DNA from: a virus
Lineage: Duplodnaviria > Caudoviricetes
Reading direction: 5' to 3' (one strand)
Virus record (IMG/VR): IMGVR_UViG_3300018089_000001
Location: 96,001 to 160,000 of that record
Length of the DNA: 64,000 bases
Every line of letters starts with the position of its first letter. The first letter of the stretch is position 1. The notes under the pieces were generated by a model, which was given only the letters and a program-made list of their open reading frames with translations, made no database searches and was not told the origin of the DNA. The position numbers and the translations under genes are program-made. This document shows positions 12,026 through 57,207 of the stretch, in pieces.

Positions 12026-12219
12026 TTTGGTCTCCGCGCTATCGATTCCTCGATGGTTCCCACGATGGCTACCCACCTTGCTTCTGTGAAAAGGGGATCG
12101 TTAGTCATCTCAACGAAGCGAGAGCGGCACTCATCGTCGCAGAAGACGTACATGGGAACGTCTGGCGTAAGAACGGGTCGTGGGCAACCGCATGCGCCGC
12201 ATGATCCGGTGTAACGCAT
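12022..12219 (-). CDS. Small Cys-rich protein
   Basis: CGACGC...FCDDEC; coupled to genes on both sides. Confidence 0.55.
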   Translation of the reverse strand: MRYTGSCGACGCPRPVLTPDVPMYVFCDDECRSRFVEMTNDPLFTEARWVAIVGTIEESIARRPN

Positions 12220-14843
12220 TAGAAGTCCATCCTGATCCGGATGTTGATGCGGTCCCGGGCCCTGATCCTGATCGGGTCGGCCAGCCGGGCGACCGCGACG
12301 AGCTCACGGTCGGAGTTGTAGATGCCCACGGTCGTGGCCCGGATCGACCCACTCGGATGCCGGGCCAGCCTCTCGCCCGCGGAGCCGGTCGCGAAGAACG
12401 TCGGGTTGTTCGTGCAGTTGAACTCGCCCCGGTCGATCCTGCACATCAGGGTCTTGACCGGCACCCGGCTATCCCCCCTGAAGCGACAGACCAGCGTCGC
12501 GTTCGGGTCGAACGCGAGGCCGTCCGTCCGCCCGAAGTCCATCAGCGCCGGGTCCTTGATGACGACCAGGCCCTCGCCGTAGAACACGTTGCCGACCTTG
12601 GGCCACCCGACGCTGTCGTTCGGATCGAAGGCCGACGGGAGCCCGCCGGACGCCACGGAGCCGGAGACGTACAGGCCGCCGTGGCCGTCGTCAACCAGGG
12701 TCCTGACGATCCCGTAGCTGGGGTCCGACCAGGACTGGTCGGTGATCGACACGCTGCCCGGAGCGATCTGCCTCCCGTAGAAGGCCGACGGGACGTCCAG
12801 CACGAGCATCCGGGTGACGGGATCGCTGGACGACAGCGCGACGGGGGCGATCGTGCTGTTTCCCGAGACGAACGTGGGGGCGAACCGCTTGGGCACCGTG
12901 AAGAGGGCGTTATCACTCGGCTCCCAGACCGGTCCCGACCTGTCGTCGAACCCGAGGAGCCGTCCGAACTGGAACGACGCTCCCTGGGCCTGACGGGCCT
13001 GGTCCAGGGCCCCCGAGCCCATCGGATACGAGTAGACCCGCGAGAGGGGCCCATCGTTGAAGGCCAGACTGAGCTGCGGTGCCAGGAGATCGCTCCCCGT
13101 GATCCTCCTGTTGTACACGGAGAGCAGTTGGTCATACGTCATCGATCGGGTCCAGACCCGGCTCTCCCCGATGAATCCGTGGAAGGCCAGGCCGGACGTC
13201 CCGGTCATGGCGGCGCTCTCCGTGGCCACCGTCCCGGTGGTCACCGTCCCCGTGTCCAGCCTGTTCCCCACCGTGTGCAGCGTGGTCGGCGACGACGCCG
13301 TGAGGGGTGTCATCGTGAACCCCACACCCCGCAGGTTCAGGTAGAGGGTCCCGCTGTACGACGTCCCGTCGTAGGTGACCGCGACGTGGTTCCAACAACC
13401 TGAGTCCGCGGACAGCGACGACGTGACGAAGATGCCGTTCGATCCGCTGAAGAAGACGGTTCCGGCGGAGCCCGTCATCCCGAGCCAGATGAGGTTGTTG
13501 CGTGAATGGAGCGTGAAGGGCCGGGGCGCGTAGGTCGGAGCGAGGGGCTTGAACCAGCTCTCGATCGTGAAGGACGAGGTCAGCGACTGCGGCGCGTACT
13601 GACCGAGGTACCCGGAGAAGTTCTGCAGGGCCTGCTTGAGGTTGGGAATGACCCCCGTGGCCACCTGGGAACCCGTGCTCATGTACAGGGCGGCCAGGTC
13701 GAAGTGCCTCGTCCCCGAGACCTCCGGGTTGTGCCCCACGTAGAAGTTCTGGGACGAGGTGATCGCGACGTTCCCGGTGAGGAATGAGACCGATGAGCCT
13801 ATGGCCCTACCGGTGTTCATGGACCGCACGCCCCAGGAGATCGCCCCGTTCGACCGGTCGAGCGCCCCGATCGCGACGTGCCACTCCCCGAGGAACAGGT
13901 TCCGTGCGATCGACGCGATCTTGAACGTCGGCGTGCTCATGACCCGGAGCGTCGCGACGTTGTTCCCCCCGTCATCTAGGAACCATCCAACCTGGTTCGA
14001 GATCGGGTCAACCTTGCCGAACAGCGCCGACCCGGCGTTCAGGCCGCTCTCCCCACCCTGCGTGGAGTCCCGGAAGCGTCCCACATACGCGAAGAGCAGG
14101 TCCGATCCCGACTGGATGTCGAAGTTCTGTCCCCCATCGAACCTGACGTTGGGGGACGACGACGTGAAGCCGACGCACAGGTCCGTCCCCATGAGCGGTC
14201 CGGGGTTCCCATAGTTCACGGTCCCGTTGCGGCTGGTGTCGAACTGCAGCGGCAATGGGTTCCCCGTGGGGGTGAACGAGGCCGTGAGCGACCCGGTCCC
14301 CTCGTCAAGGAGCCAGCCGAACCCCCAGCTCCCCCACCCGACGGCGGCGGCCATCTGGGCCGACGAGCTCGGGTAGCCGAACGCCGGGGTGAGCGCCCCC
14401 GTCAGGACGACGACGTTCCGCGAGGTCCCCTTGAAGAAGAGGCAGTAGTTGTCGTAGGACGAGGTGACGTAGTCCGGGTCCATGACCCGGTAATCCTGGT
14501 AGAGCCGCTGGAGCACGTCCCAGTGCTCCTCGCCCCACCTGGTCGAGTTGACCTGGGAGAGGCCCAGGGCCTCGCTGGTCACGTACACGAAGTTGACGGA
14601 GGCCGTCAGCGGCTGGCCGAGTCGCGGGTTGCCCGTCTGGTTGACGTTGGGCGCGAACGACTGATACGTGATGGTCGAGAACGTCCCGGGACGGCGGCGG
14701 GCTCCCCCGTAGAGTGAGAGGGACGCCGAGCCCTCCGGCGAGCCGCTCCATCCCTGGGCCCCTGACACGAGCGTGTAGCTCGGCTCGAGGATCAGGACGT
14801 TGTCGAGTTGGTCCTCCGGACCGAATCTCTTGAAGGCCGGCAT
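12219..14843 (-). CDS. Virion structural protein with LamG/concanavalin-like domains
   Basis: FTIESWFKP, WNHVAVTYDG and FHGFIGESRVW are LamG motifs; C-terminal EFNCTNNPTF...TTVGIYNSDRELVAVARLADPI. Confidence 0.8.
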   Translation of the reverse strand: MPAFKRFGPEDQLDNVLILEPSYTLVSGAQGWSGSPEGSASLSLYGGARRRPGTFSTITYQSFAPNVNQTGNPRLGQPLTASVNFVYVTSEALGLSQVNSTRWGEEHWDVLQRLYQDYRVMDPDYVTSSYDNYCLFFKGTSRNVVVLTGALTPAFGYPSSSAQMAAAVGWGSWGFGWLLDEGTGSLTASFTPTGNPLPLQFDTSRNGTVNYGNPGPLMGTDLCVGFTSSSPNVRFDGGQNFDIQSGSDLLFAYVGRFRDSTQGGESGLNAGSALFGKVDPISNQVGWFLDDGGNNVATLRVMSTPTFKIASIARNLFLGEWHVAIGALDRSNGAISWGVRSMNTGRAIGSSVSFLTGNVAITSSQNFYVGHNPEVSGTRHFDLAALYMSTGSQVATGVIPNLKQALQNFSGYLGQYAPQSLTSSFTIESWFKPLAPTYAPRPFTLHSRNNLIWLGMTGSAGTVFFSGSNGIFVTSSLSADSGCWNHVAVTYDGTSYSGTLYLNLRGVGFTMTPLTASSPTTLHTVGNRLDTGTVTTGTVATESAAMTGTSGLAFHGFIGESRVWTRSMTYDQLLSVYNRRITGSDLLAPQLSLAFNDGPLSRVYSYPMGSGALDQARQAQGASFQFGRLLGFDDRSGPVWEPSDNALFTVPKRFAPTFVSGNSTIAPVALSSSDPVTRMLVLDVPSAFYGRQIAPGSVSITDQSWSDPSYGIVRTLVDDGHGGLYVSGSVASGGLPSAFDPNDSVGWPKVGNVFYGEGLVVIKDPALMDFGRTDGLAFDPNATLVCRFRGDSRVPVKTLMCRIDRGEFNCTNNPTFFATGSAGERLARHPSGSIRATTVGIYNSDRELVAVARLADPIRIRARDRINIRIRMDF

Positions 14844-14912
14844 CAGTCGATGGGGGCAGGTATGATCGATTTATTCTGCCGATCCAACCAATCTTCTAAG
14901 TGGTTGTAATCA

Positions 14913-15908
14913 TTAGTAATCGAGCCGCAGCCTGAAAATTGCCTCGGTCTCGGGGGACTTCAGCACCGGCCGGTTCGTCTTGCCGACGGCCAGCAGGTTG
15001 TCGTTCTCGTCGTAGAGCCCGATCGTCGTGACGTACGTGCGGGTCGTGAGGATGTTACTCCCCGAGGTGACCCGAATAAGGCCGGTGGAGTCGGTGAATG
15101 TCGGGTTCGACGAGTAGTTGAACTCGTTGTTGAAGGCCCGGCAGAAGTACAGCGACGACTGCAGGTTCGTCTGGTTGTTCAGGGCGATCAGCTCGATGTG
15201 GGTGCGGGCCCCGTCGACGACCTGGTTGATGCACCCGGAGAACTGGGTGTTGATCAGGCTCTTGGTCCCCGACCAGGTCGCGATCGCGCCCCAGGCCGTG
15301 TCCGGCTGGAGGATGACCACGCCGGCGTTGTACCAGACCTGCCCGACCTCCGAGCCTGTCCCGTTGTACTTGAGCGGCGCGTAGTCGCCGCCGAGCGACT
15401 GCTGGAAGTTCACGGCGGCGCCGGCGTCGGACGCCGTGTACTGCGTCGGCGTGGTCGAGTTGATGACGATGTTGACCGTGCCCTTCTTGATCTCGTCCTT
15501 GGAGATGTTCCTCCGGAACGAGAGGAAGAGGGCGTGCCTGGCGGCGGTCGAGTTGATGGTGAACGTCGAATCGGGGTTACCCAGGAGGACGGCGGCCCAC
15601 TGCCGATAGATCTTGATCTTCTCGGAGAGGGACGACGTGGAGGTGGCTAGGACGTTGTACTGGGAGCCGGTCGAGAACCCGTACGTCATGTCGAACAGCG
15701 GGCTCGACAGGGACGCGGTCGGCGAGGCGTCGTACGCGCTCTCCCAGTAGCCGCCGAGGTCGATCGCCGCGGACCCCGAGGCGACGTTCTTGAAGAACTT
15801 GACGTTGACGTTGTTCGCGAAGATCGACCCGGTGATCGAGATGGTCTCGTTGATCGCCGTGGAGAGCGGGGCGAAATCGTCCTGCAGGTTGAAGGCCTTG
15901 AAGGAAAT
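14913..15908 (-). CDS. Virion structural protein (probable ATT start)
   Basis: Frame extends 73 codons upstream of the ATG at 15689 to ATT-TCC-TTC-AAG (xSFKAFNLQDD, compare the paralog's MPAFKRFGPED); C-terminal EFNYSSNPTF...TTIGLYDENDNLLAVGK is paralogous to 12219..14843. Confidence 0.75.
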   Translation of the reverse strand: MSFKAFNLQDDFAPLSTAINETISITGSIFANNVNVKFFKNVASGSAAIDLGGYWESAYDASPTASLSSPLFDMTYGFSTGSQYNVLATSTSSLSEKIKIYRQWAAVLLGNPDSTFTINSTAARHALFLSFRRNISKDEIKKGTVNIVINSTTPTQYTASDAGAAVNFQQSLGGDYAPLKYNGTGSEVGQVWYNAGVVILQPDTAWGAIATWSGTKSLINTQFSGCINQVVDGARTHIELIALNNQTNLQSSLYFCRAFNNEFNYSSNPTFTDSTGLIRVTSGSNILTTRTYVTTIGLYDENDNLLAVGKTNRPVLKSPETEAIFRLRLDY

Positions 15909-15928
15909 TGTTAAATGATTCCCTAGGC

Positions 15929-17401: not shown

Positions 17402-17404
17402 TGG

Positions 17405-17686: not shown

Positions 17687-17695
17687 GGTCTGTAC

Positions 17696-21243: not shown

Positions 21244-23975
21244 TCGTCCTCCCAGCCCCTAAGGGGTCGCGGATCGGCCGCCAACGCCGCCCTTTCCGCA
21301 TCGGAGAGCGCCGACAGGAACTTGCGGTCGAACGGGGAGTCCGTCAGGGCGATGCCGCCGTACACCCAATCGGAGAGGTGGCCCGAGGAGTCGAAGGACC
21401 TGACCCGATAGAAATACGAGTTGGCCATGGAGACATCGACGTCCAGGAAGCCTCGGTTGCCGACGAACGCTCGACGATCGATGAACGACGGGTCGGCGGA
21501 GATCCCGAGGGCGCGGCTCGATTCACGGGTGACGCGAGCGACACCCACGTACTCAAGGGAACGAGCGACCGCCGAGTCCATCGACGGCACCTTAGACCCG
21601 AACACGCGGTTTGTCACGGCGCGCTGGACCTCCCAGCCGTCAACGAAGATTCCCTGGTAGTCCCAGGAGACGACCACCCTCAGCGGCCGAACGGCCGTGG
21701 AGCTCGCCCTTACGAAGAGGACGGACGGGGGGGAGATTCCAGGCACGATGCTGACCCTAACGGGCGGCGTGTGGGGACTGACGAACGCCCCGCTCTGCAT
21801 GGCGATCACCCTGTACTCATACTCGAGGTTAGGAGTCGCGAGCGAAGGACGGAAGAGCGGAACCTCGACGGTCCCCACGGGGTCCACGAAGTACGAGGAA
21901 GTCGTGGCGGGCATGCTCTGCCAAACGGACTTCCCGACCTGCCTCCGCTCGACCTGGAATAGGCTGCGTTGCGCGGTGGCGGCTAGCACGTCCTGGTCGT
22001 CAATGAGCTCGCTCGGAGAGAAATCAAGCGTTCCGGGCTTCCATGAGAGCAGCACGCCGGTCGGTGAGCCGAGGTCGTCCGTGACGACGGTCCCGGTGAG
22101 CGCCACGGGGGCATCGGAGACGGGCTTGACGGACACGAAAACGGGCTGCGCCGGGACCGTGGCAGTCTCATTGCCGCGGATGTCGATCCCGACGACCGAG
22201 TACTGGTACGTGCGGTCGAACTCCACGACCCTATCGACGAAGCTCCCGACTCCGGAAATCGCGGAGACGATGCCGTTCCAAGCCTTGGATGAGAACTGGT
22301 TCAGTGACGGACCGGAACGAGAGCGCGCTCGCTTCGGGTCAACGGACCCGACCCTGAAATAGTCCGGAAACGTAGGCTGCCTGAAACCGTTCTCTCCGAT
22401 GCCGAGGTCCCTTCTCCCGATGACGAAGGAGGTCACCCTCCGGTCGTCGCAGGCCACGATGACGTTCACGGAGTGTCCCCCCGGCATCTGCTCGGCCGTG
22501 ATGGACGGGACCCCTAGCGGGATGACCCTCCCGGGGTCAGGCAGGAGGACGGAACAAGAGAACGGAGTCTGGGACTTCAGGCCGAAGGAGTCGACGGTGT
22601 AGACGCGGTAGTCCAGCGAGACCCCGAGCGGGGCCCCCCGATCGACGAATATCGCGGACCGGTCGGGACCAGCGCCGACGTCGCCGATGTGATAGAACCC
22701 CGAGTCGAGAACGGTCGGGATGCCGCGATCAATCATGGACCTATCGGTGGAGACCAGTCCGACCTGGCGCGGTGGGTCTCCACCGCGTCGAAAGAGCTCG
22801 AAGTGGTCGACGAACGACCCCGAGGTCCTGATCACGAAGCGTGGGACCGACGAGACCCCGTACAGGACATCGGGTGAGAGCGGCGGCGTCGAGCGCGTCA
22901 CCTCCACGATCACCAGCCTGGACCTCGTCCCGGAGACTCCGGAGGAGACTACCGCCACGACGTAATACACGTACCCACCGCCGTACACCACCGAGGGGTC
23001 GTGGAACTCGAACTCCGCGACGTCGCCGACCTTTCGTGCGGGGACCGCGGACACCCGAGCAACCTCAGAGAACCCCATCGAGTTTCCGGACGCCACGATG
23101 GCCGTGCTGGACCCCACAGACCTACCGCGCAGCACGTTCAACCCCTGCCTCTGCGCCGCCTGGAGGGGGAGGGAGACCTCCTCCCCGGGGCTCATGCTGC
23201 GGCGGTTCACGTAGAACCCCACGTTCTCGAGGACGCTCCGGTCCGCGTTGGCGACGGAGACAAGCGACGCGGGGCTCCCGCGTCTGTTCGTGTTCACAGG
23301 CGCGGGAAGGGGGCGCAGCGTCGGATTAGAGAGGACGTTACGCTGGTTGGCGAAGTGATCGTCAGCCACGAAGTCTGAGAGCTTGTTCGTGACTCCCACT
23401 CCGGCCACCCTAAGGGCCTGGTTGGAGATCACCTCAGTCGACTTGGTGCGCGACGAGAGTGGAATGGAGTCGGCGAGGGCCGAGAAGGACGGCTTCGGGG
23501 CGCTGACGGGCCCCGTCGATGCCCGCATGACCCGGAAGTAGGAGACCCTCGGAAGGTCACTCAGAAGCACCGAGAAGACCACGCGGGCGAAGAAGCTGTC
23601 GAGGACCCCGCGGGCGCGGTCGACGCCGACCTGGACGAAGTCAAGTTCGGGACGAGGCGGCGGCGGAGGAGCGACGACGACGGAGGTGGTAAGCCCGAAC
23701 TGGGCCGTCGAGACCGCGATGGCCGACCCGACAACGGTGGCCCCACCGAAACGGGTGATGAAGTCCGCCTTCGACCCCGAGGACACCGTCTGGAGAGGAG
23801 CGAGGCCCGAGATGAAGGCGCTCCTGACGGCGGTAACCTCCTGGGCGCCCTTGGCGGCCAGGTCAGCCACCGCGCTTCGCAGCGCGGTCAGCGACGCCGG
23901 CGCCTGGACGGACGCCGGAAGCGTGGTCGGAGAGAGGACGGCCGGTGACAGGGCGGCCGCAGAGAACACCGGCAT
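21240..23975 (-). CDS. Virion protein with multiple FN3-like repeats
   Basis: Repeated F.D..V..G..Y.Y.V pattern (FHDPSVVYGGGYVYYV, FVDRVVEFDRTYQYSV, FLDVDVSMANSYFYRV). Confidence 0.72.
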   Translation of the reverse strand: MPVFSAAALSPAVLSPTTLPASVQAPASLTALRSAVADLAAKGAQEVTAVRSAFISGLAPLQTVSSGSKADFITRFGGATVVGSAIAVSTAQFGLTTSVVVAPPPPPRPELDFVQVGVDRARGVLDSFFARVVFSVLLSDLPRVSYFRVMRASTGPVSAPKPSFSALADSIPLSSRTKSTEVISNQALRVAGVGVTNKLSDFVADDHFANQRNVLSNPTLRPLPAPVNTNRRGSPASLVSVANADRSVLENVGFYVNRRSMSPGEEVSLPLQAAQRQGLNVLRGRSVGSSTAIVASGNSMGFSEVARVSAVPARKVGDVAEFEFHDPSVVYGGGYVYYVVAVVSSGVSGTRSRLVIVEVTRSTPPLSPDVLYGVSSVPRFVIRTSGSFVDHFELFRRGGDPPRQVGLVSTDRSMIDRGIPTVLDSGFYHIGDVGAGPDRSAIFVDRGAPLGVSLDYRVYTVDSFGLKSQTPFSCSVLLPDPGRVIPLGVPSITAEQMPGGHSVNVIVACDDRRVTSFVIGRRDLGIGENGFRQPTFPDYFRVGSVDPKRARSRSGPSLNQFSSKAWNGIVSAISGVGSFVDRVVEFDRTYQYSVVGIDIRGNETATVPAQPVFVSVKPVSDAPVALTGTVVTDDLGSPTGVLLSWKPGTLDFSPSELIDDQDVLAATAQRSLFQVERRQVGKSVWQSMPATTSSYFVDPVGTVEVPLFRPSLATPNLEYEYRVIAMQSGAFVSPHTPPVRVSIVPGISPPSVLFVRASSTAVRPLRVVVSWDYQGIFVDGWEVQRAVTNRVFGSKVPSMDSAVARSLEYVGVARVTRESSRALGISADPSFIDRRAFVGNRGFLDVDVSMANSYFYRVRSFDSSGHLSDWVYGGIALTDSPFDRKFLSALSDAERAALAADPRPLRGWEDE

Positions 23976-24610: not shown

Positions 24611-24619
24611 GGGGATGGG

Positions 24620-38511: not shown

Positions 38512-38514
38512 TCC

Positions 38515-42783: not shown

Positions 42784-42899
42784 AGGAAGCTCCCGGGGTC
42801 ATACCCCAAGGCGATCGCCGCCCATTTCGGAGGCAGGCGGCAGGTTATCGCGGCAAAGTGCGCCGCCCCTACCCAAGCCCACATCTCAAGCCACGTCAC
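42774..42899 (-). CDS. Small hydrophobic ORF (41 aa)
   Basis: Read by hand: MTWLEMWAWVGAAHFAAITCRLPPKWAAIALGYDPGSFLWN; overlaps both neighbours. Confidence 0.35.
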   Translation of the reverse strand: MTWLEMWAWVGAAHFAAITCRLPPKWAAIALGYDPGSFLWN

Positions 42900-44180: not shown

Positions 44181-44183
44181 GCC

Positions 44184-45784: not shown

Positions 45785-46838
45785 CTTTTAGCCATTCTAC
45801 CACATCACGCCAGCGGGCCTTCACGGAGAGGTCGTCCAAGGCACGGCGGTGGCCCTGTTCAGCGATCTTTTCCCTATGAACGGGGCCGCTGTGCCTCGTG
45901 TCATAGGGAGAGATTCCGAGGAACCAGCGTATCTGGTTCTCCAACTGGTTCTCAGAACTGAAGTATGCGCAGTGAACGAGGCCCTGAAAGTCCTCACGCA
46001 TGCCCGGATCGTCGATCTCCTGCGAGAGCATGAATGAGCCGACGTAGGGGATCTCGTAGGCCCGCATCGTCTTGCCACGGTCGGCTGCACCACGGAGGTT
46101 CAGGGCGATCCGCGACCTCTGGATGACGTCGAAGTACTGGGCCTTCGGGACGAAGTTCCCGAACGAGTCCGGCTCAGTCTCGAGAACCAGATGCAGGCGT
46201 AGATCCGGGAAGGCGCGTCGAATGAACTCGACGTACCGCTGCCTGTCCGGATGGCTGTTGTACCCGATGAAGGACACGTCGATGTCCTTCGCGGGGGGCT
46301 CCGCGGGCCTCGTCCAGTAGTGATCGAAATTGCACGACCACCCGATCCGGCGGGCCTTGAAGGGTAGGGTCGCGTAGCCGGGATACCAGTTGTCGAGCAG
46401 CATCGCCTGCAGCCTGTCCCCGTACAGGGAGGCCACGAACTCCGGGGAGTGGTTCCAGAAGCGGTCGTGGCCCGCCACGACGACGACGCGGGCGTCCGTC
46501 GTATGGAGGCCGAGTATCCGGTACCTCTGGAAGCTCTCCATCCGCTCGTCGAGCCAGATGCGGGTGATGGGAGCGACATCGATCGGGCGCACCCTCTTTC
46601 CACCGACCGTCAGGCCGCGATCGTCGGGGATCGACCGCACGAAGCCGAGGGTCCTCCGTTCGAGGCCCCAGTCGGGTTGCCTCGTCCCGTTCAGGACGTC
46701 CCACCACTCCCGGTGCTTCTCCTTGTACGGCACGTCGACCAGGTTGACGCCGTTGGCGAGCAGCCCAGCGCGGCACAGGTCGAGTGACCAGTCTCCCCCG
46801 TCACGCAGGTCGATCAGGAACTCCAACCCGTCAGGCAT
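45777..46838 (-). CDS. Glycosyltransferase (CgeB-like)
   Basis: DIDVSFIG, RSRIALN, RAYEI. Confidence 0.78.
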   Translation of the reverse strand: MPDGLEFLIDLRDGGDWSLDLCRAGLLANGVNLVDVPYKEKHREWWDVLNGTRQPDWGLERRTLGFVRSIPDDRGLTVGGKRVRPIDVAPITRIWLDERMESFQRYRILGLHTTDARVVVVAGHDRFWNHSPEFVASLYGDRLQAMLLDNWYPGYATLPFKARRIGWSCNFDHYWTRPAEPPAKDIDVSFIGYNSHPDRQRYVEFIRRAFPDLRLHLVLETEPDSFGNFVPKAQYFDVIQRSRIALNLRGAADRGKTMRAYEIPYVGSFMLSQEIDDPGMREDFQGLVHCAYFSSENQLENQIRWFLGISPYDTRHSGPVHREKIAEQGHRRALDDLSVKARWRDVVEWLKDA

Positions 46839-47505
46839 CGAAGTCCTCGAAGTACCGCGACGGGATCTGGGACAGGAACGTCCGCATGTGGTGTAGGCCG
46901 ATGTTCGTCTCCCACGTCCAGTGGAGGGTCAGGACGACGTCGTGGCCCCGGTCGCTCTTCTCCATCATCCGGAGGTGCGACTCGCGCGTGAGCAGCTCGT
47001 CGCAGCGGCCGTACTCGTGCGGGGCGACGCTGTGGACACACATGCCGCCGAAGAAGTCCCGGACGTCCGTGTCCGTCTCCGGGCCCGAGGTGAACCACCG
47101 GAAGCCGACCTCGTCGAGAAGACTCGCGGTCCGCCAGTCGATGACGTTCCGCGGGGGCATGTAGATCCTGACGGGCCTGTTGACCACGGCCTCCAGAGCG
47201 AGGCGATGGTCCTCGAGCTGGCCGGCGACCTGCCTCGTCGAGAGGTACGGCTCGAACTGGTTCCCGCCGCTCCTGTCCAGCCGCGCCTCGTCGTGGTCCG
47301 TGCCGTGCATGCCGATGACACAGTCAGTCTCCCTCTGCAGGGCCAGCAGGTCCTCCGCCGTGCACCTTCCGGGGATGACCCCAAGGAGATACCTCTTCCC
47401 GCCGATGAGCGCGCTCAGCTCACGGTGGAACTCACGGAAGGCCGCCAGCGTGTGCTGCGGCTCCCCCCTCGTCTGGGGAAAGTCGTCCACTCGTACTCTG
47501 ATCAT
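46831..47505 (-). CDS. Polysaccharide deacetylase-like protein
   Basis: RVDD, GVIP, MHGTDH, YMPPRN, LTLH. Confidence 0.75.
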   Translation of the reverse strand: MIRVRVDDFPQTRGEPQHTLAAFREFHRELSALIGGKRYLLGVIPGRCTAEDLLALQRETDCVIGMHGTDHDEARLDRSGGNQFEPYLSTRQVAGQLEDHRLALEAVVNRPVRIYMPPRNVIDWRTASLLDEVGFRWFTSGPETDTDVRDFFGGMCVHSVAPHEYGRCDELLTRESHLRMMEKSDRGHDVVLTLHWTWETNIGLHHMRTFLSQIPSRYFEDFDA

Positions 47506-48118
47506 GCGGTTTCCTCAGGATGATCTCGATGGCGTACTCCCCCACGGGATGCACGTCCTCGGGAAGGGTGTAGTCGTAGCCGGCGTCGATGACCCGGAAG
47601 TCCATCACGTCGACGTTCCCCAGGGCGTTGGCGCACTCGCCGACCAACGAGAGCGTGTGGGGATCCTCGTACCTGTCGGGCAGCCAGAAGCTGAGGTGCC
47701 CGCCGCCTCCCTCGCGGTCATGGGGGTTCCAGCGACTGGGATGGGTCCTCCTCTTCTCGTAGAGGTCCCGATGGGGGACCGCGACGATGAGGTTGCCGCC
47801 GGGCTGGAGCACCCTCCACCAGTTGCGAAGAGCCGCCCGAGGATCGGGGAGGTGTTCGAGGATGTGGGAGGCGTAGACGGTGGCGAAGGAGCCGTCGGGG
47901 ATTCCCGCAAGGGTCTGGGCGTCCCGCGGTCCCGGGCTATTCACGCAGGTCAATTGACTCTCACTCTCGACGTAGGTCCACTGGTAATCCCAGTGGACCG
48001 TCCCCAACAGCGGAAGCGGGTCGACGCCGGATCCGATGTCCAACACCGGTAGTCGGACGAACCGCTGATACCACTGTTCCTGCATCCTTCGCGGATGCGC
48101 CTTGCTGGTCTCAGCCAT
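47432..48118 (-). CDS. SAM-dependent methyltransferase
   Basis: LDIGSG, ASHILEH, RVLQPGG. Confidence 0.82.
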   Translation of the reverse strand: MAETSKAHPRRMQEQWYQRFVRLPVLDIGSGVDPLPLLGTVHWDYQWTYVESESQLTCVNSPGPRDAQTLAGIPDGSFATVYASHILEHLPDPRAALRNWWRVLQPGGNLIVAVPHRDLYEKRRTHPSRWNPHDREGGGGHLSFWLPDRYEDPHTLSLVGECANALGNVDVMDFRVIDAGYDYTLPEDVHPVGEYAIEIILRKPHDQSTSGRLSPDEGGAAAHAGGLP

Positions 48119-48779
48119 TGAGGACCCTCTCCATCGCGGGCAGGACGACCTCCCCGTAGATCGCCTCGGGGCGCAGGTGGACGCCGTCATCGGAGACGAA
48201 CCGCGCGGCGTCGGGCGGGCAGATCACATGGACCCTACTCGATCCCACGATGAGCATCTCGGGCAAGACGGCCGTCAGGAACCTCCTGAGCGTCTCCATG
48301 CGACCGAAGGCCAGGTTCCCGCAAGGGGCGTTGAAGTGCGCCGGCGTCTCCCCACCGAGGGGATAGTGGAAGCCGAAGTACACGAAGACGTTCCCCTTGA
48401 CCCTTCCGGTGGCGAGCAGGTCCTCGTCTATGAACGACCGGTATCGCGTCACCAGCTCGAACGCCTTGGCCGCCATGAGCGTGTTATCGGGACGGAAGTA
48501 CCGACGGTTATGGTACCGCATGTCGACCTCTCCGAAGACGAGGCCGACGTTCTGGACGCCGCCCTTGTCATCCAGGGTCGCAAGGACGTGCTTCCGGGCA
48601 CCCCTCTCCGAGTCTTCATGCAGGAGACCCCACATGGTGGCTCCCGAGAGCTCGCTGCCGGTCGTGTCCAGGGTCACGATCCCACGCTCCTCATGGAACA
48701 CGCCGGGCTCCCCGGTGTTCAGGAACGGAAAGAAGACCCGCCAGTGTGAGTCCCCGAAGACATACACCTCATGCGACAC
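48111..48779 (-). CDS. SGNH hydrolase/acyltransferase-like protein
   Basis: VFGDSH, GAT, FGEVD, DGVH. Confidence 0.75.
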   Translation of the reverse strand: MSHEVYVFGDSHWRVFFPFLNTGEPGVFHEERGIVTLDTTGSELSGATMWGLLHEDSERGARKHVLATLDDKGGVQNVGLVFGEVDMRYHNRRYFRPDNTLMAAKAFELVTRYRSFIDEDLLATGRVKGNVFVYFGFHYPLGGETPAHFNAPCGNLAFGRMETLRRFLTAVLPEMLIVGSSRVHVICPPDAARFVSDDGVHLRPEAIYGEVVLPAMERVLNG

Positions 48780-49800
48780 GCTCGATCTCCTCGACGTAGG
48801 AGCGCCACTCAGAGCAAAATCGTTCCGATGATAGATCACGCTCAACAAGCATCCGGGAGTTCGACGAAAACCTATCATGAAGAAATTCGTCAGCGAGACA
48901 TGCGCGAACTTTCTCTAGGGTGACCCCCGGCTTCCTTTCCTTCCGATCAATGACTGTTCCTAGCCATGGAACAGACCAAAGATAGCCCACGTCGTATCCA
49001 ACAACTGGAACTCCGCAAGCCAATCCCTCAGCCACAAACATGCTGTTGCCCTCAAATGCTGAGGGATGGACAATGAGGTTCGCCTGGGATAGGACTTCCG
49101 GTTTCGTCCAGAGTCGATCGGAGAAAAGTTGGAACATCCCATAGGCTTCGTCGAGGCTCAGCACGTCGGCGTCGAGTTCCCTCTGGAGGAGCTCAATGTG
49201 GTCCCACCCCTTGTTCAGGTTCGATCGGTCGTTGACCCCATGGAGGATGAGCGGGCGGTGTAGATACGAACACACATACTCACGCGGTCGATAGAGCGTC
49301 GTGTCCACGCCGTTGTTGATCACGCGATTGACCGCGAAGCCCCACTGCAGACGCATCTGCTCGGCGATGAAGTCTGAGACTGCCGTGATCCGCTTCCCGA
49401 GTTTAGTCCACCGCCGCCTGAACGACACCTGGGCCGCGTGGTGCAACGGCATGTCGGGTTCCCTACCCGCCAGGACGTCCTCATGAGTCAAATGCGACCA
49501 GATGCCGTGGCTGTGACTGATCGCGAACGGGAGGGCGTCGAGGCCGTCGGCCCAGAACCCGTCGGCCACGACCACGTCGTCCAGGCGGACCTTCCGCGAC
49601 GCGAGCAGGTACTGGTTCAGGACCCGCGCCTTCTGCCATTCGGACAGCAGGGCGTCCGAGCCCGCGTCGTGTGGGCAGTCGTCCCAGCAGAAGTGCCGGC
49701 ACTCGCGCTCGGGAAACGAGGCATGGAGGTCCCGATTGAACTTCGGGACCCCGCCGCCGGCGTCGAGACCGGTGTATGAGACCGTGACGAGGCGACGCAT
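48769..49800 (-). CDS. Glycosyltransferase GT4
   Basis: GGV, AVSDF, NGVD, KGWD, PSAFEG...EGLACGVPVV. Confidence 0.88.
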   Translation of the reverse strand: MRRLVTVSYTGLDAGGGVPKFNRDLHASFPERECRHFCWDDCPHDAGSDALLSEWQKARVLNQYLLASRKVRLDDVVVADGFWADGLDALPFAISHSHGIWSHLTHEDVLAGREPDMPLHHAAQVSFRRRWTKLGKRITAVSDFIAEQMRLQWGFAVNRVINNGVDTTLYRPREYVCSYLHRPLILHGVNDRSNLNKGWDHIELLQRELDADVLSLDEAYGMFQLFSDRLWTKPEVLSQANLIVHPSAFEGNSMFVAEGLACGVPVVGYDVGYLWSVPWLGTVIDRKERKPGVTLEKVRACLADEFLHDRFSSNSRMLVERDLSSERFCSEWRSYVEEIERVA

Positions 49801-51054: not shown

Positions 51055-51346
51055 CCGGGATGTAATCGCAGATGTACCCGACCTTCTGGGCCCTCATCAT
51101 CGTCTCATAGAGGTTGGGCTTCCCGATTCCAGCGATCTCCTGCATCCGGCGATATCCCCTCTTGACTCGCCAGCGGTAGTACAGATACCACGCCGCGAAC
51201 CGGAAGGCCCTCTTCGCGTAGTGCTTGGCCCTTCGGACAGCGCGGCTGAACCGCGAGTTCCCCGGCCTCCGGGGCTTGAGGGGTCCGTAGCTCATCTGGA
51301 CCGCGAGCATCTCGAGCGGCCGATCGTCCCTCACTTCCCAGCCCAT
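51011..51346 (-). CDS. Basic hypothetical protein
   Basis: TGATG coupling to the upstream GT gene. Confidence 0.45.
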   Translation of the reverse strand: MGWEVRDDRPLEMLAVQMSYGPLKPRRPGNSRFSRAVRRAKHYAKRAFRFAAWYLYYRWRVKRGYRRMQEIAGIGKPNLYETMMRAQKVGYICDYIPGDPSKQGPTDGADS

Positions 51347-54300
51347 CAGACCCATCCCTTCATCGAGGCCGGCGCCTCGATCTCCAGTTCGAACGTCGCG
51401 GCGGGCCCGTGCTCCCCGCCTCTCTTCCTGAGTTCCTCGGCCTTCCGCGCGACGTCGTCGTCGGTCGTCACGTCCGGAAACCTCGGCTCCGGTGGGGTCT
51501 GATACAACACAGACCACTGCTTGTCCCAGAAATCCCGGAAGTTCCGGACCTTCCGCGGGAGGTCGGCCCAGCTGTAGTGCCAGACTGACGGCAGCGAGGC
51601 GAACAGGGCGTTCATCTGCCGCCCGTATTCCGCCGGGTCCCGCTGGCGCAGCCCGTCGAGCTCCTTGGTATAGAACCCGCGGTGCTTGACATGGTCACCG
51701 GTGACCATGTCGATCAGTTCGCACCCGTCGGACATGCCGCGCTTGGCATAGATCCTGCCGGTCTTCGGATCGATGACCCGCGCCTGCGCGTTGATCCCGT
51801 GGGTGATGCGCAGGTTATTCCGACTGAGCCGCCACTTCCAGGAGTGGCGGTCGGTGCGGACATGCCTATCGTCCCCCCAGAGCTCGACCACTGGGAGATG
51901 CACGACGTCGACGTCGGCGGGGAACCTCTTGCAGAGCTCGCGAATCTTCCCGTAGTCCCGCTCGTGGACCACCTCGTCCGCGTCCTGCTGCCAGAGGAAC
52001 TCCGTCTCGGGGGAGACCATGGCCCGGCCGAAGGCCTTCTGCATGCCGTCCATGCCGGGCTCCTCGGGGTCCCACTCACGCGTGATGAGCTTCAGCTTCC
52101 CGACGGCCAGGGGATGCAGCATCGCCAATTCCTGGACTTTCTCCCGGCTGCCGTCCGTCGACCCACCGTCCACGACGATCACCTCGTCGCAGAAGCCGAG
52201 CATACTGACGATGCTCTGGACATACGGATAGCCGTGCGTCAGCGGATTGAGGATGTGGGTGTAACCCGCGATCCGCGGCCTGTACGGCTTGAACCTGACC
52301 TCCTGACCGGGCCTGAGGCAGTCCATCGCCTCGAGGAAGACCCGCTCGACCGGGATGCCGTTGATGCACGGGTCATCGGTGTCGACGGCGCAGGTGTCCT
52401 TGTAGCAGGCCCGCTCGCAGCCCTTCCGGTCAGTCGTCTCGATGAGACGCAGGCGCCGCGAGGCGTCATACACGAGGGTCCCGCACGCGATGCCCTCACG
52501 CTCCATCTCCGCGAGCTGGAAGTCCTTCGGACCGGTGCTCCGGGGGTATGAGCTGCCAAAGATCGCGATGACCTTGCAGCCGACCGCGTTCGCCACGTGC
52601 ATCGGGTAGGAGTCGATGCAGGCGATCGCGCCGACGTCGTCCAGGACGGAGACCAGCTCGATGTGGGACCGGCCCCTCGCGTCGAAATCCACGGGACCCA
52701 CGGGGACGTCGTCGGAGGCCCCGACCTGGACCACCTTGATCCCATTGTCCCGCAGGTTGCGCACTAGCTCAGACCAACCGGCCCACCGGCGGGCCGTCTT
52801 CTGGCCACCGGCGTGGACCGCGATCCAGGCGCCCACGTTCAGTCCCGGAAACTGTACCCGGGAGAGCTCGCTTCCCCTGGGAAAGACGGGCGGCTGGGCC
52901 TCGACGCCGCAGTGGTTCGCGAACTCGTCGATGAGGTTCCTGCCCCGTCCGCGGTGGACCCAGTTCGACCAGGCCATCTGGACCGCCAGGTTCGGGGTGT
53001 AGACCTCGTCGAAGATGTCCTCGAGGATCGAGACGTCCTGCATCCAGGGCTGCCACTCGAGCAGCTCATCCACCAACAGGGAGCCGTCCCCGAGTCGAAG
53101 GTCCCTCACGATGTCGAAGTACCTGGGGGAGGTGGCGAAGTAGACCCGATGTCCCGGGTGCTTGTCCCTCAGGGCCCGCACGACGCCAGTGCTGAGGAAG
53201 ATGTCCCCGGCTGACATCGGCATGGTGTAGACGAGCGCGGGACCCTTCTCCCGGACCCTGCGCCTGTTCTCGCGGACGAAGTCCCTCCGGGACTTCGGGG
53301 ACGCCTGGGCCAGCTGGTCGACGCCCCGCGCCAGCAGGTCGCAGAAGGCCGCTCCGGCGGAGGCAAGCGAGTACCGCTGGGCGATGTGCTGGGCCAGTTC
53401 GGCGGCCCACTGGCGCGGGGTGTCTGAGTTCAGGGCCATCTTCTGGAGCTTGACGCAGACGTCGGTCTCCCTGGGCACGGCCCAGTTCGTCCCGGCCTCC
53501 ATCACTCCCTCCCAGGCGCACTCCTGGGGGATGGGCTGCATGTCACACTCGAAGGGGACGAAGAGGCGCTTCCCGTCCTTGTGCAGGAAGTCGAGGTGCC
53601 CGGACCAGTTGGTGGCCATGACGGGCAGGCCGCACGCGGCCGCCTCGATCATTGGCAGGCCGAAGCCCTCGCCGTGGGTCAGGCTGACGGCGGCGACCAC
53701 GCGCGGGTCGTTATACAGCGCGGCCATCTCCGCCTCGGAGAGCCTGCCGTGGATGACCCGGATCGTCGGGAACTCCCCGCAGCCGGTCGAGGCCTTGATC
53801 TCCGCCACCCGCCGCTTGACGAGCTCGAAGTCCACCGTGGAGTAGTTCACGATGGAGGTCTTCAGGACCAGGCCGACGGACCTGCTCCCGGCGAAGGTCT
53901 TGCAGAAGTACTCGACCAGCCGCGTGACGTTCTTCCGGTCCTTGCCGTGTGGCTTGTCGAGGCCCAGGCCGACGAAGACGAAGCTCCGCTGCGGGAGGTC
54001 GTACTCGGTCAGCGTCGCCTCGGCCGGACGGTACACCGAGGTGTCGACGCCCTCCGGGATGACCATGATCGGCTTCTCGAGGTGGAGCTTCGACCCGTCG
54101 GACCCCTGGTACTCGACCATGAACGACGTGCGGGAGTGCTCCGAGGGGACGACGACGACGTCGACCTCCTGGTTGCACTTCATGATCCACTGCGGCGAGA
54201 CCCGGTCGACCTCGATCCCCGCGGTGACCCCGATCGTCAGCGGGGCCCGTCGCTTGAACTCGTTCGGAATCGTGACCTGCACGGCGACCTCGGGGTCGGC

Positions 54301-54498
54301 GTGGGTGCCCTGCAGAGCCATGATCCAGACGAACTCCGTCCCATTCAAGATCGGCGTGTCCCCCCATTTGATCGACTCGACGCGTACGTCGTACAGTCCG
54401 GTGTCGACGACGGACCTGAGCAGCTGACGGGCATGGACGCCGTAGCCGGAAGCAGTCAGAACGGGACCGGTGAACTGGAGCCTCGTCTTCGCCATCAT
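51346..54498 (-). CDS. Tri-domain glycosyltransferase (GT4 + GT9 + GT2-like)
   Basis: SGYG...GEGFGLPMIEAAACGLPV; AGDIFL...W...DSYPMHVA; DEVIVVDGGSTD...QDADEV. Confidence 0.85.
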   Translation of the reverse strand: MMAKTRLQFTGPVLTASGYGVHARQLLRSVVDTGLYDVRVESIKWGDTPILNGTEFVWIMALQGTHADPEVAVQVTIPNEFKRRAPLTIGVTAGIEVDRVSPQWIMKCNQEVDVVVVPSEHSRTSFMVEYQGSDGSKLHLEKPIMVIPEGVDTSVYRPAEATLTEYDLPQRSFVFVGLGLDKPHGKDRKNVTRLVEYFCKTFAGSRSVGLVLKTSIVNYSTVDFELVKRRVAEIKASTGCGEFPTIRVIHGRLSEAEMAALYNDPRVVAAVSLTHGEGFGLPMIEAAACGLPVMATNWSGHLDFLHKDGKRLFVPFECDMQPIPQECAWEGVMEAGTNWAVPRETDVCVKLQKMALNSDTPRQWAAELAQHIAQRYSLASAGAAFCDLLARGVDQLAQASPKSRRDFVRENRRRVREKGPALVYTMPMSAGDIFLSTGVVRALRDKHPGHRVYFATSPRYFDIVRDLRLGDGSLLVDELLEWQPWMQDVSILEDIFDEVYTPNLAVQMAWSNWVHRGRGRNLIDEFANHCGVEAQPPVFPRGSELSRVQFPGLNVGAWIAVHAGGQKTARRWAGWSELVRNLRDNGIKVVQVGASDDVPVGPVDFDARGRSHIELVSVLDDVGAIACIDSYPMHVANAVGCKVIAIFGSSYPRSTGPKDFQLAEMEREGIACGTLVYDASRRLRLIETTDRKGCERACYKDTCAVDTDDPCINGIPVERVFLEAMDCLRPGQEVRFKPYRPRIAGYTHILNPLTHGYPYVQSIVSMLGFCDEVIVVDGGSTDGSREKVQELAMLHPLAVGKLKLITREWDPEEPGMDGMQKAFGRAMVSPETEFLWQQDADEVVHERDYGKIRELCKRFPADVDVVHLPVVELWGDDRHVRTDRHSWKWRLSRNNLRITHGINAQARVIDPKTGRIYAKRGMSDGCELIDMVTGDHVKHRGFYTKELDGLRQRDPAEYGRQMNALFASLPSVWHYSWADLPRKVRNFRDFWDKQWSVLYQTPPEPRFPDVTTDDDVARKAEELRKRGGEHGPAATFELEIEAPASMKGWV

Positions 54499-55559
54499 CC
54501 CCTCGCGATGATCAGGCCGGAGCTGCCGGCCCCCATCTTCCGCTCGTATGCGTCCAGGACCTCGAGGCCCTGGAACAGATCGATCATCGGCTCCCAGCCG
54601 AGGACGTCCCGGGCCTTGGTGACGTCGGCGAGCGTCACGTTCGCTTCACCGGGCCTGGGTGGGACGTACTCGACGTTGACCGCGCTACTGATCATCGCGT
54701 TCGCAAAGTGCCGCGCCTCGATGATCGAGGCCAGCTCCGCGATGCTGTAGTTGCGGCCCGCCCCGATGTTGAAGACCCCCGTGGCCTCGTGGTTCATCAT
54801 GGCGAGCATGTTCGCCCGCACGACGTCCCCCACGAACGTGAAGTCCCGCCGCTGCGTGCCGTCACCGACGATCGTCATCCTCTGCCCGAGCCTGAGCTGG
54901 CGGCGGAAGATCGCGATGACAGTGGCGTACCGGCCCTCCTCCTGATGACGGGGTCCGTAGACGTTGAAGTACCGGAGGCTGACGGTGGAGATCCCGTACA
55001 GCCGGTGGTATACGTCCATGACGTCCTCGCCCGCCTTCTTGCTCACGCTGTACGGGTTGAGGCAGTCAGTGGGAAGGTCCTCGTGTAGACCCTTCACGTG
55101 GGGACCCGGCTTGGGCCCATCAGGAGAATCAACGCACCAATGATGCCCATCGTAGTTTGGGTCAAAAACCCAATCATTCCTTCGACCGTACGCCGACGAG
55201 CTCGCGGAGTAGACGATCCGGGCCACGCCCATCTGCCGGGCCGCCTCGGCCACGTTCACCGTGCCAACGACGTTGGTCTCGACGGAGTGCCGCGGGTCGG
55301 CGATGCCCGTCTGGATGCGGGAGTCGGCGGCGAGGTGGAACACGCACGATGCGTGGTCGCACGCCCGCCTGACCAGGTCGAAGTCCAGGATCGAGCCCCG
55401 GATGACCTGCAGCTTGGGATGCCGCCGCCACCGCTCGAGGTTGGCGTCCCGACCCTCGGAGAAGTCGTCCAGGACCCGGACCTCCATCCCCTGCGTGAGG
55501 AGCTCGTCAACGAGGTTCGAGCCGATGAAGCCGGCCCCGCCCGTCACGAGGACCGGCAT
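54495..55559 (-). CDS. NAD-dependent sugar epimerase/dehydratase
   Basis: VTGGAGFIGS, YSVSK, RYFNVYGP, GDGTQRRDF. Confidence 0.92.
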   Translation of the reverse strand: MPVLVTGGAGFIGSNLVDELLTQGMEVRVLDDFSEGRDANLERWRRHPKLQVIRGSILDFDLVRRACDHASCVFHLAADSRIQTGIADPRHSVETNVVGTVNVAEAARQMGVARIVYSASSSAYGRRNDWVFDPNYDGHHWCVDSPDGPKPGPHVKGLHEDLPTDCLNPYSVSKKAGEDVMDVYHRLYGISTVSLRYFNVYGPRHQEEGRYATVIAIFRRQLRLGQRMTIVGDGTQRRDFTFVGDVVRANMLAMMNHEATGVFNIGAGRNYSIAELASIIEARHFANAMISSAVNVEYVPPRPGEANVTLADVTKARDVLGWEPMIDLFQGLEVLDAYERKMGAGSSGLIIARG

Positions 55560-55873: not shown

Positions 55874-55881
55874 GGTCTCCT

Positions 55882-57207
55882 TCAGATGCTGGCCGTCCTC
55901 AGTCCGATCTTACCACGGCGGGAGGCGTGTTGTTCCATGGCCTTGGTCAGGCCGGCGTCCCAGCCATCGAGCATGGTCTGCATGCCAAAGGTCCTGGTCG
56001 CCCACTCCCGGGCCTCCAGTCCGATCTTCCGGCGGGCCGTGCGGGGGATCCGATAGACCTTCTCCAGGGCGTCGGCGACCTGGTCGTCGTTGACCCGGTC
56101 GTCGTAGATGTACGGGACCTGCTGCGATCCCACGAGATTGCGGGCCGCTGGAAAGACCGGCACGCCCCACCACCTGTGGGTGTTCCTCCGGGACTTCGCG
56201 ACCTTCGTGAGTCTCTCCTGGTCAGAGAAGTCCCGCTGGTCCTGCCACCAGTCACCGACCTGAAACTGCAGGCCGCCGGTCATGTTCACCACGATCGGGG
56301 TACCCGCGTAGAGTGCCTCGAGGGTGCCCAACCCGAAGCCCTCGTTGTTACTGATGTTGATCACGCAGTCAGCACAGTTGTACATCACGTTCAGCTGCGA
56401 GGCGTCCACCCGTCCCTCCGAGAGGAGGAGGAGGTCCTGCACATCGAGCCTCCTCGCGACCGCGTTCACGTCCTGGCCCTCGGGGTCACCCGGGGCCGTG
56501 TGCATGAGCAACGCGACGCGGTCCCTCCCGACTCGCTTGGCAAGCCGAGCGAACGACTCGAGCACGTCGCCCGTCATCTTCCGCCTGGCGTTGCGGTTGT
56601 TCCACATCAGGATGAACTCGCGGGAGGCGAAGGGTCCGTAGTGGCGCCGACGGGCCTCGAGGACCTCGCTCTCCGGGAGGGGCCTGAACAGGTCGGCCGG
56701 CTCCGCGTGGGGGACATAGCTGTACCGCTCCTCGGGATACCCGAGTCCCTGGAGGATCCCGAAGGTCTTCAGGGACAGGGTCATGATGTAGTCCGTGGCC
56801 TCGTAGATGGGCCGGTTGAACTCGGGAGTCGGGTCGTTGTCCCACACGTGCCAATAGACGAGGGGGCAGACCGCCCGCACCTCGTCCTCCATCTCCCAGA
56901 CCCAGTAGAAGAACCTCGGGTCCGTGAAGAGGACCACCGCGTCCGGCTTCAACTCCGCGAGCATCCGCCGAAGCTTGTCCTTGTCCCCGTGCCCGTCGAC
57001 CGGATGGATCACCCAGTTGCCCTCCCCGAACTCGTCAGGGGACACCTGTTGGGGTGTGTAATCCGGGTGTTTGATCGCCCCGCCGAGGCAGGTGAAGCTG
57101 TACTTCCCTGTCTTGAGCAGGCCGCTGATTGTATATTTCGCTTGAATGCCGACGCCTGACGGAACAAGCGGGTGGTCACTGAGCCAGAGTATCTTCTTGC
57201 GGGTCAC
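55882..57207 (-). CDS. Glycosyltransferase GT4
   Basis: SDHP..PSGVG, NRNARRK, NEGFGLGTLEA. Confidence 0.88.
   Translation of the reverse strand: MTRKKILWLSDHPLVPSGVGIQAKYTISGLLKTGKYSFTCLGGAIKHPDYTPQQVSPDEFGEGNWVIHPVDGHGDKDKLRRMLAELKPDAVVLFTDPRFFYWVWEMEDEVRAVCPLVYWHVWDNDPTPEFNRPIYEATDYIMTLSLKTFGILQGLGYPEERYSYVPHAEPADLFRPLPESEVLEARRRHYGPFASREFILMWNNRNARRKMTGDVLESFARLAKRVGRDRVALLMHTAPGDPEGQDVNAVARRLDVQDLLLLSEGRVDASQLNVMYNCADCVINISNNEGFGLGTLEALYAGTPIVVNMTGGLQFQVGDWWQDQRDFSDQERLTKVAKSRRNTHRWWGVPVFPAARNLVGSQQVPYIYDDRVNDDQVADALEKVYRIPRTARRKIGLEAREWATRTFGMQTMLDGWDAGLTKAMEQHASRRGKIGLRTASI

Follow-up and report, generated by a model that had tools for sequence, protein, structure and literature searches.

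The tripeptide [ST]GS (serine or threonine followed by glycine and serine) is strongly over-represented in putative exterior virion proteins of an uncultured, T4-like soil phage, where it forms a real, order-specific motif under selection. It was studied in a stretch of 64,000 nucleotides, referred to here as the window, which comprises bases 96001-160000 of the IMG/VR record IMGVR_UViG_3300018089_000001 (185,486 bp, about 91% complete, about 65% G+C). Judged from the predicted proteins, the motif is confined to putatively outward-facing virion proteins, and its presence tracks soluble glycosyltransferases (GTs) encoded by the phages themselves. We give an even chance to the reading in which [ST]GS is the acceptor tag of a phage O-glycosylation system primed by a pair of GT4 enzymes, GT4-a and GT4-b, with an island of about 20 kb, including ADP-heptose genes, adding a lineage-specific glycan. 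From these genomic patterns we infer the glycosylation of the motif, the acceptor residue and the sugars used. The initial annotation of the window had proposed [S/T]-G-S as the sequon of a virion heptosylation system; the motif indeed proved to be real, order-specific, selected and linked to soluble GTs, whereas the link to heptose was not supported.

The phage is T4-like and encodes gp25-like and gp6-like baseplate wedge proteins, a TROVE protein, an SbcCD fusion and a late sigma factor of the gp55 type. The genes for the tail tube, the sheath and the gp23-like capsid protein lie just beyond the window edge. Nearly all genes of 12219-57207 are carried by the minus strand, and coordinates and strands alike confirmed that, as had been claimed, the glycan cluster runs in the same direction as the baseplate module and lies just upstream of it.

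To quantify the excess, the expected number of [ST]GS was computed from each protein's own S, T and G content, and pooled counts were compared with 5000 composition-preserving shuffles. In the five proteins flagged at the outset, by-eye counts of 14, 13, 10, 6 and 5 motifs were reproduced exactly. Pooled, these proteins contain 48 motifs, whereas the shuffles average 8.3 (sd 2.8; z 14) and never exceed 22. In this set, TGS (24 versus 3.2) and SGS (24 versus 5.1) take the first two ranks among all tripeptides by over-representation, while the reordered GSS, SSG, GST and GTS occur at chance level and SGT is only mildly raised. Amino-acid composition, the first explanation to be controlled for, therefore does not account for the excess.

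Analysis of the whole genome, based on the open reading frames (ORFs) returned by a simple ORF caller, revealed 75 motifs versus 13.1 expected in the putative exterior-virion blocks, 40 versus 36.7 in the remaining genome and 3 versus 3.1 in the glycan cluster. The excess is limited to a few blocks, namely the distal baseplate and fibre genes, the sheath, the genes beside the tube and the genes beside the capsid. The sheath carries 4 motifs versus 0.8 expected, located between residues 115 and 555 and thus mostly N-terminal to its conserved C-terminal region (546-779). The block beside the tube gene consists of one fibre-like gene and one gene without assigned function, and the block directly downstream of the capsid gene of three small genes. 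Non-structural and core proteins are nearly devoid of the motif, with one copy each in SbcCD, terminase and TROVE and none in the tri-domain GT, the portal or the tube, in agreement with the 0-1 copies originally noted for all of these except the tube, which was added here. Outside the window, small proteins adjacent to the capsid and tube genes (genome positions 85099-87539 and 76616-77233) display a strong excess, for example 4 versus 0.3 in 153 amino acids and 5 versus 0.6 in 205 amino acids. These may be head or tail decoration proteins; none of them has a family match, and the capsid-adjacent ones gave no match in PDB, Pfam or PHROG searches.

The gp6-like protein (31949..33775) served as a marker of the clade, which includes at least 588 gp6 relatives in IMG/VR as well as the cultured Microcystis phage Mel-JY01, Flavobacterium phage immuto and Rhodothermus phage RM378. 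In the outer tail and baseplate proteins of the window phage and its relatives, [ST]GS occurs about 5-fold above expectation. The 104 homologues of 27682-30591 contain 1347 motifs versus 180 expected, and 53 further metagenomic loci contain 835 versus 153.7, with an observed/expected ratio (O/E) of 3.0-9.1 in each. Among the cultured phages, the counts are 49 versus 7.3 for Mel-JY01, 62 versus 14.3 for immuto and 43 versus 16 over the whole genome of RM378, including 21 versus 3.3 within a single tail block. The excess is also present in the metagenomic loci L002-L018. Taken together, the relatives with the excess range from 27 to 65% G+C, and this persistence ruled out nucleotide or codon bias as its cause. 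The hosts of motif-positive phages span phyla (a cyanobacterium, Flavobacterium, Rhodothermus and a high-G+C soil host). Control baseplate and fibre proteins showed no excess, with O/E values of 0.8 for T4, 1.3 for Aeh1, 1.1 for the cyanophage Bellamy and 1.3 for phiMAM1, so the possibility that beta-rich fibre proteins of phages show the excess in general was ruled out as well. Homologues at about 29-38% identity have few of the window's sites in common, yet each carries 14-17 motifs of its own; in these alignments, positions turn over while motif density is kept.

Residue specificity was measured over 30,369 amino acids of clade exterior proteins. Position 1 is strongly enriched only for S and T (5.4-6.1x), D and I reaching 1.5x; position 2 favors G (5-6x), then A (2.5-3.2x); position 3 favors S, then T (2.1x). 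The fuller consensus is thus [ST]-[G>A]-[S>T], with an excess of hydrophobic residues at -1 and +3. If the motif reflected a generic preference for turns, D, N or P before G-S should be enriched too, but D-G-S and N-G-S showed no enrichment over these proteins, which indicates more than a turn preference. In the homologues of 27682-30591, the motif serine has a conservation of 0.80 versus 0.48 for other serines (p=5e-4), the position-1 S/T 0.93 versus 0.58 for other S/T (p=2e-5) and the motif glycine 0.89 versus 0.66, values that, across the aligned sequences, place [ST]GS under purifying selection. For residues 1-420 of 27682-30591, AlphaFold predicts a helical N-terminus and a LamG/pentraxin-type jelly roll (pLDDT 84.8), and nine of the ten motifs in this model fall in short strand-turn-strand junctions. 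The weaker, beta-rich model of 30591-31952 (pLDDT 68.8) likewise places its motifs in loops and hairpin turns. The structure mapping suggested for judging surface exposure thus located the motifs in turns between strands in both models, the read-out being secondary structure rather than exposure.

Two of the GT genes co-vary with the motif. Both 55882-57207 (35.7 bits) and 51346-54498 (34.3 bits) passed the PF00534 (Glycos_transf_1) cut-off of 26.4 bits; the first encodes GT4-a and the second carries GT4-b as its N-terminal domain. Adjacent GT4-a and GT4-b are orthologous in the window, Mel-JY01 and immuto, with 33-37% identity, approximately that of gp6. The catalytic EX7E motif of these retaining GT-B enzymes is intact in GT4-a of all four genomes compared; for GT4-b, it is intact in the window, in Mel-JY01 and in immuto but not in p014, the RM378 candidate. 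In the whole phage collection, GT4-a was found only in Mel-JY01, immuto, LR756508.1 and RM378. Only 15 window-phage proteins are detectably common to RM378, and GT4-a is among them, scoring like the tube and capsid genes. Five metagenomic loci (L014, L090, L094, L100 and L146) have the pair immediately upstream of the baseplate genes and no more than 10 kb from gp6. In Mel-JY01, GT4-a is not one ORF but two, of 190 and 302 amino acids, which lie next to each other in different frames (L025 1442-2933). Upstream of GT4-a, either immediately or separated from it by a single small ORF, stands a PD-(D/E)XK exonuclease gene in the window (57229-58191, minus strand), in immuto (L026 465-1406) and in LR756508.1 (L039 5691-6701), a synteny that, on gene order, is kept across distant relatives. 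Our literature search found no report on Mel-JY01 or on RM378 glycosyltransferases.

The excess was found in every relative checked that has both GT4 genes or sits on a contig too short to check, and in the genomes compared it was seen only there. As the IMG/VR relatives are contig fragments (12-51% complete), a missing GT4-b on such contigs is uninformative, and two large genomes are more telling. LR756508.1 (484 kb) groups with Mel-JY01, immuto and locus L018 (support 99/97 in the gp6 tree and 95/94 in the major capsid protein tree). A custom profile detected GT4-a in it at 316 bits, but GT4-b was not found anywhere in its genome. It shows no excess, with 6 motifs versus 2.8 after gp6, 9 versus 8.0 around the capsid gene and a genome O/E of 1.37 with one significant ORF, the baseline given by non-virion ORFs of Mel-JY01 and immuto being 1.2-1.4. 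A tblastn profile of all window-genome ORFs revealed GT4-b as the only gene that reaches at least 100 bits in Mel-JY01 and immuto yet is missing from LR756508.1. The initial annotation had named relatives that lack GTs but keep the motif as an argument against its idea; LR756511.1 (595 kb), with neither GT4-a nor GT4-b, has no excess (10 versus 8.3). It falls outside the motif-bearing group in both trees, on a long branch and with midpoint rooting only.

These data can be weighed against a purely structural explanation, in which [ST]GS is a clade-specific turn motif that suits hairpins or bulges, or makes contacts with chaperones or during assembly, and has spread unmodified through exterior proteins, its match with GT4-b being coincidental. 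The strand-turn-strand location suits this explanation, as do the decay of aligned sites to SGA, SGT, TGT and AGS, which keeps a small-Gly-small pattern, the presence of several motifs in paralogous or duplicated modules, and the small number of events, about two, that tie the motif to GT4-b. It is nevertheless unlikely: the homologous or similarly beta-rich control proteins lack the excess, the turn formers D, N, P and G are not enriched at position 1 while a hydroxyl is needed at both ends, the motif occurs in unrelated folds and proteins with turnover of its positions at constant density, and LR756508.1 has the orthologous proteins but lost the excess.

Several observations weigh against acceptor-tag glycosylation. 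First, a tight turn itself constrains sequence, so that part of the conservation may be structural. Secondly, in the genomes compared, the link between GT4-b and the motif comes down to about two evolutionary events, one gain and one loss, plus clade membership. The RM378 candidate p014 is very diverged (21% identity, E 5e-10 with a custom hidden Markov model), has no Pfam match and has lost the second glutamate of EX7E, and RM378 still has the excess. GT4-a adjoins the exonuclease gene in immuto, LR756508.1 and the window and lies among replication genes in RM378, a neighborhood that gives no hint of a late, structural role. Lastly, the major capsid protein has no motif (0.7 expected), and three Ser-rich proteins of the same operon (17696-19444, 19444-21243 and 21240-23975, minus strand) carry it at chance level. 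These three are large proteins in the middle of the motif-rich operon, and no Pfam, PHROG or PDB match was obtained for them.

In the glycosylation model that we favor, [ST]GS would be a selected surface tag placed at strand-turn-strand junctions of the distal baseplate, the fibres, the outer sheath and small capsid-adjacent proteins. Late in infection, soluble cytoplasmic GT4-a and GT4-b would put the first one or two sugars on the motif hydroxyl, their acceptors being folded or folding virion proteins. In the window phage, GT4-b is fused to GT9 and GT2 modules, which would then extend and decorate this core. Four more GTs, three to four methyltransferases and the deacetylase-like enzyme of the island would elaborate it further, along with the sugar-nucleotide enzymes, among them those of an incomplete ADP-heptose branch. 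The finished glycan would be lineage-specific. In its broadest form, the model makes [ST]GS a true sequon read by GT4-a/GT4-b across a large, worldwide T4-like clade infecting several host phyla, giving a defined glycan coat on sheath, baseplate and fibres with a chemistry that differs between lineages, here methylated and possibly heptose-containing; we consider this equally liable to prove right or wrong.

The heptose enzymes, in contrast, were ruled out as the motif's shared partner. Immuto has no GT9 and no HldC-like gene despite its strong excess, and Mel-JY01 has no HldC and only a GT9 domain; the excess is also present in L014, whose island is minimal. In the window phage, the best NCBIfam matches of the HldA-, HldC- and HldD-like proteins (118, 111 and 139 bits) are all below the equivalog cut-offs (345, 181.5 and 274.6), and no match to PF13580 (GmhA) or TIGR01656 (GmhB) was found in the 185-kb genome. 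With GmhA and GmhB not encoded, the phage heptose branch is incomplete. Membership of the GT9 modules in the TibC/Aah family was not supported either: neither GT9 protein matched the NCBIfam BAHT family at E<=0.001, both giving only weak matches to lipopolysaccharide (LPS) heptosyltransferases II/III, and no TibC chain was among the PDB matches at E<=10. On these grounds, the proposed heptosylation of the motif by ADP-heptose and GT9 enzymes is not supported. The suggested correlation between motif and GT presence in relatives holds for the GT4 pair and not for GT9 or HldC; since the motif co-varies with the two GT4 genes, heptose would be at most a later, lineage-specific addition.

The island is located directly upstream of the sigma factor and baseplate genes in the window, a position kept in many relatives. 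Over about 20 kb it encodes 7 GT genes with 9 GT domains (including the GT4+GT9+GT2 fusion), 4 methyltransferase-like genes and 1 deacetylase-like gene, together with a nucleotide-sugar dehydrogenase, a second SDR enzyme and a cupin. A crude hydropathy scan detected no membrane segment in any island protein and no multi-pass membrane protein in the genome; at the level of this test, the earlier statement that flippase, polymerase and membrane-bound GT are all missing holds. The T4-type late promoter TATAAATA, searched for as a clue to when the island is expressed, gave 0 matches, which is uninformative at 65% G+C and with most apparent gaps being coding.

The classical role of GT9 enzymes and ADP-heptose lies at the cytoplasmic face, in work on the inner core of LPS; enzymes of this kind are likewise free of membrane segments. 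The island, and possibly the GT4 pair, could have a target outside the virion and the motif another purpose; candidates are phage DNA, a small molecule and the host envelope, where a modified exopolysaccharide or LPS core might mask receptors or exclude superinfection. This possibility, to which we assign a low probability, would also fit immuto, which bears the motif without heptose genes or GT9, and the proximity of GT4-a to nuclease and replication genes in several relatives. It is opposed by the lack of a flippase, polymerase, ligase or other multi-pass membrane protein in the crude scan, by the fixed position of the island in many relatives and by the conservation of GT4-a, which resembles that of portal, capsid and tube genes out to RM378; nor does it give a reason for the motif vanishing together with GT4-b. 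As for DNA, immuto DNA analyzed by LC-MS consists of dA, dC, dT and fdPreQ1, a formylated 7-deazaguanine, with no sugar-bearing base reported (PMC10516641), which makes a DNA glycosyltransferase role of the GT4 pair unlikely in that phage. Finally, it is very improbable that the motif is read by another clade-specific factor (kinase, other transferase, protease or host system): many clade genes have no known function, but GT4-b is the only well-conserved gene that occurs in the genomes with the motif and is missing from LR756508.1, and the hosts are too diverse for a common host enzyme.

The predicted genes of both modules are listed in Table 1. Several further features were observed among them. 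The frame of 14913-15908 is open back to an ATT codon without an ordinary start codon and directly follows an HNH/endonuclease-like gene (15929-16687, minus strand); its C-terminal domain is common to fibre genes of Mel-JY01, immuto and RM378. The proteins of 16688-17401 and 23975-24610 (minus strand) carry an N-terminal module of about 70-105 residues that is common to each other's Mel-JY01 and immuto homologues, about 30 residues of which also occur in RM378. Inside the island, 41615-41869 (minus strand) encodes an 84-amino-acid 6-O-methylguanine-DNA methyltransferase DNA-binding domain (PF01035, 95 bits), its start overlapping the stop of the upstream GT gene. Between two GT genes, the ORF 49800-50393 (minus strand) shows 33% identity over 79 amino acids to the RM378 major capsid protein gene (E 6e-9) and, from this alignment, looks like a capsid-protein fragment within the island. 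The GT9 module of the tri-domain protein ends in a C-x3-C-x4-C-x7-C cluster (C694-C711; window 52366-52419, minus strand), which could be a metal site.

Table 1. Predicted genes of the virion and baseplate module and of the glycan island, in window coordinates
Feature	Position	Strand	[ST]GS count or profile evidence
874-aa fibre/baseplate-periphery protein with LamG domain	12219..14843	-	10 motifs vs 2.1 expected
331-aa fibre-like protein	14913..15908	-	5 motifs vs 0.5 expected
211-aa small virion-module protein	23975..24610	-	2 motifs vs 0.1 expected
1021-aa baseplate/fibre protein, partly paralogous to 12219-14843	24620..27685	-	13 motifs vs 2.8 expected
969-aa protein, LamG/pentraxin-like jelly roll	27682..30591	-	14 motifs vs 2.1 expected
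453-aa protein directly downstream of gp6 (gp7 position)	30591..31952	-	6 motifs vs 0.8 expected
gp6-like baseplate wedge protein	31949..33775	-	2 motifs vs 0.5 expected
gp25-like baseplate wedge protein	33782..34168	-	T4-like feature
gp55-like late sigma factor, between glycan island and baseplate genes	36223..36897	-	T4-like feature
HldA-like heptose-7-phosphate kinase (PfkB family)	37594..38511	-	TIGR02198, 118 bits
HldC-like heptose-1-phosphate adenylyltransferase	38515..38979	-	TIGR02199, 111 bits
UDP-glucose/GDP-mannose dehydrogenase family enzyme	38972..40078	-	profile match
Conserved 348-aa island protein	39976..41022	-	no family match
Methyltransferase	41019..41618	-	profile match
Glyco_trans_1_2 glycosyltransferase	41866..42783	-	profile match
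Cupin (possible sugar isomerase/epimerase)	42896..43261	-	profile match
HldD-like ADP-heptose 6-epimerase	43248..44180	-	TIGR02197, 139 bits
Stand-alone GT9 (heptosyltransferase-like) enzyme	44184..45146	-	profile match
Methyltransferase	45071..45784	-	profile match
Glyco_trans_1_2 glycosyltransferase	45777..46838	-	profile match
Polysaccharide-deacetylase-like enzyme	46831..47505	-	just under Pfam cut-off
Methyltransferase	47432..48190	-	profile match
GT4 glycosyltransferase	48769..49800	-	weak NCBIfam match to SdgA/SdgB
Tri-domain transferase: GT4-b (residues 1-401), GT9 module, GT2 module	51346..54498	-	PF00534, 34.3 bits
SDR nucleotide-sugar epimerase/dehydratase	54495..55559	-	profile match
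GT4-a, clade-core retaining glycosyltransferase, EX7E intact	55882..57207	-	PF00534, 35.7 bits

The proposed system can be compared with several known ones. Virion glycosylation by phage-encoded GTs has reportedly been described in mycobacteriophages, the only tailed phages for which it is shown experimentally in the literature we searched. Common to both is the idea that soluble GTs, encoded by the phage close to its structural genes, coat its own particle. The system proposed here would differ in that capsid and tube lack the motif, the sites being internal turn tripeptides on the baseplate, fibre and sheath of T4-like myoviruses, and in having a conserved GT4 pair. According to PMC12619734, the mycobacteriophage glycans are carried by the C-termini of capsid and tail-tube subunits in actinophage siphoviruses.

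Aah/TibC, the bacterial autotransporter heptosyltransferases (BAHT), are soluble enzymes that O-glycosylate beta-rich adhesins in the cytoplasm with a donor borrowed from LPS synthesis; the window phage has ADP-heptose enzymes and GT9 modules, one of them ending in a Cys cluster. The Aah acceptor is a strand-loop-strand element (PMC3835316), and the window motifs lie at strand-turn-strand junctions in two models, a likeness of the acceptor only and not of the enzyme. Unlike the sharp tripeptide described here, Aah has no sequence consensus, and the motif persists in relatives without GT9 and HldC. Adjacent GT-B/GT4 genes whose products modify surface-protein serines in the cytoplasm before export or assembly are also a feature of Gram-positive adhesin systems. 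GtfA/GtfB, for serine-rich repeat proteins, and SdgA/SdgB, for Ser-Asp repeats, are such two-gene GT4 O-glycosyltransferases, GtfB being non-catalytic. In the phages, by contrast, EX7E is intact in the two enzymes of the pair in three of four genomes, the tripeptides are isolated in folded beta domains rather than set in long low-complexity repeats, and sequence searches gave no significant membership in these families.

Chlorovirus PBCV-1 and mimivirus encode their own cytoplasmic glycosylation of capsid or fibre proteins. As proposed here, these giant viruses use their own sugar-nucleotide pathways and soluble transferases to glycosylate the particle independently of host membrane machinery; unlike here, their hosts are eukaryotic, the acceptor rules are different and no homology was seen beyond the GT4 fold family, the PBCV-1 GT4 B736L (PDB ID: 3oy2) being a weak sequence match to GT4-a. 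Large T4-like cyanophages likewise carry big islands of soluble sugar-nucleotide and 'LPS' enzymes, but Bellamy shows no [ST]GS excess and no GT4-a homologue was found in the phage collection outside the present clade. The en bloc O-glycosylation of Bacteroidota, which acts on D-[ST]-[AILVMT] in periplasmic acceptors by means of a flippase and an oligosaccharyltransferase, differs in that no multi-pass membrane protein was detected here by the crude scan and in that the hosts span phyla.

The idea is directly testable, since three members of the clade are in culture. If true, it would go beyond what is known from mycobacteriophages in three respects: a short tag would predict the sites, the conserved machinery would be a minimal pair of enzymes, and the system would be spread very widely among environmental T4-like phages. 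It would provide a simple sequence rule for spotting glycosylated phages. It would also change how tail-fibre and baseplate surfaces are read, from receptor binding to the way in which they withstand proteases or harsh conditions and are recognized by immune or defence systems.

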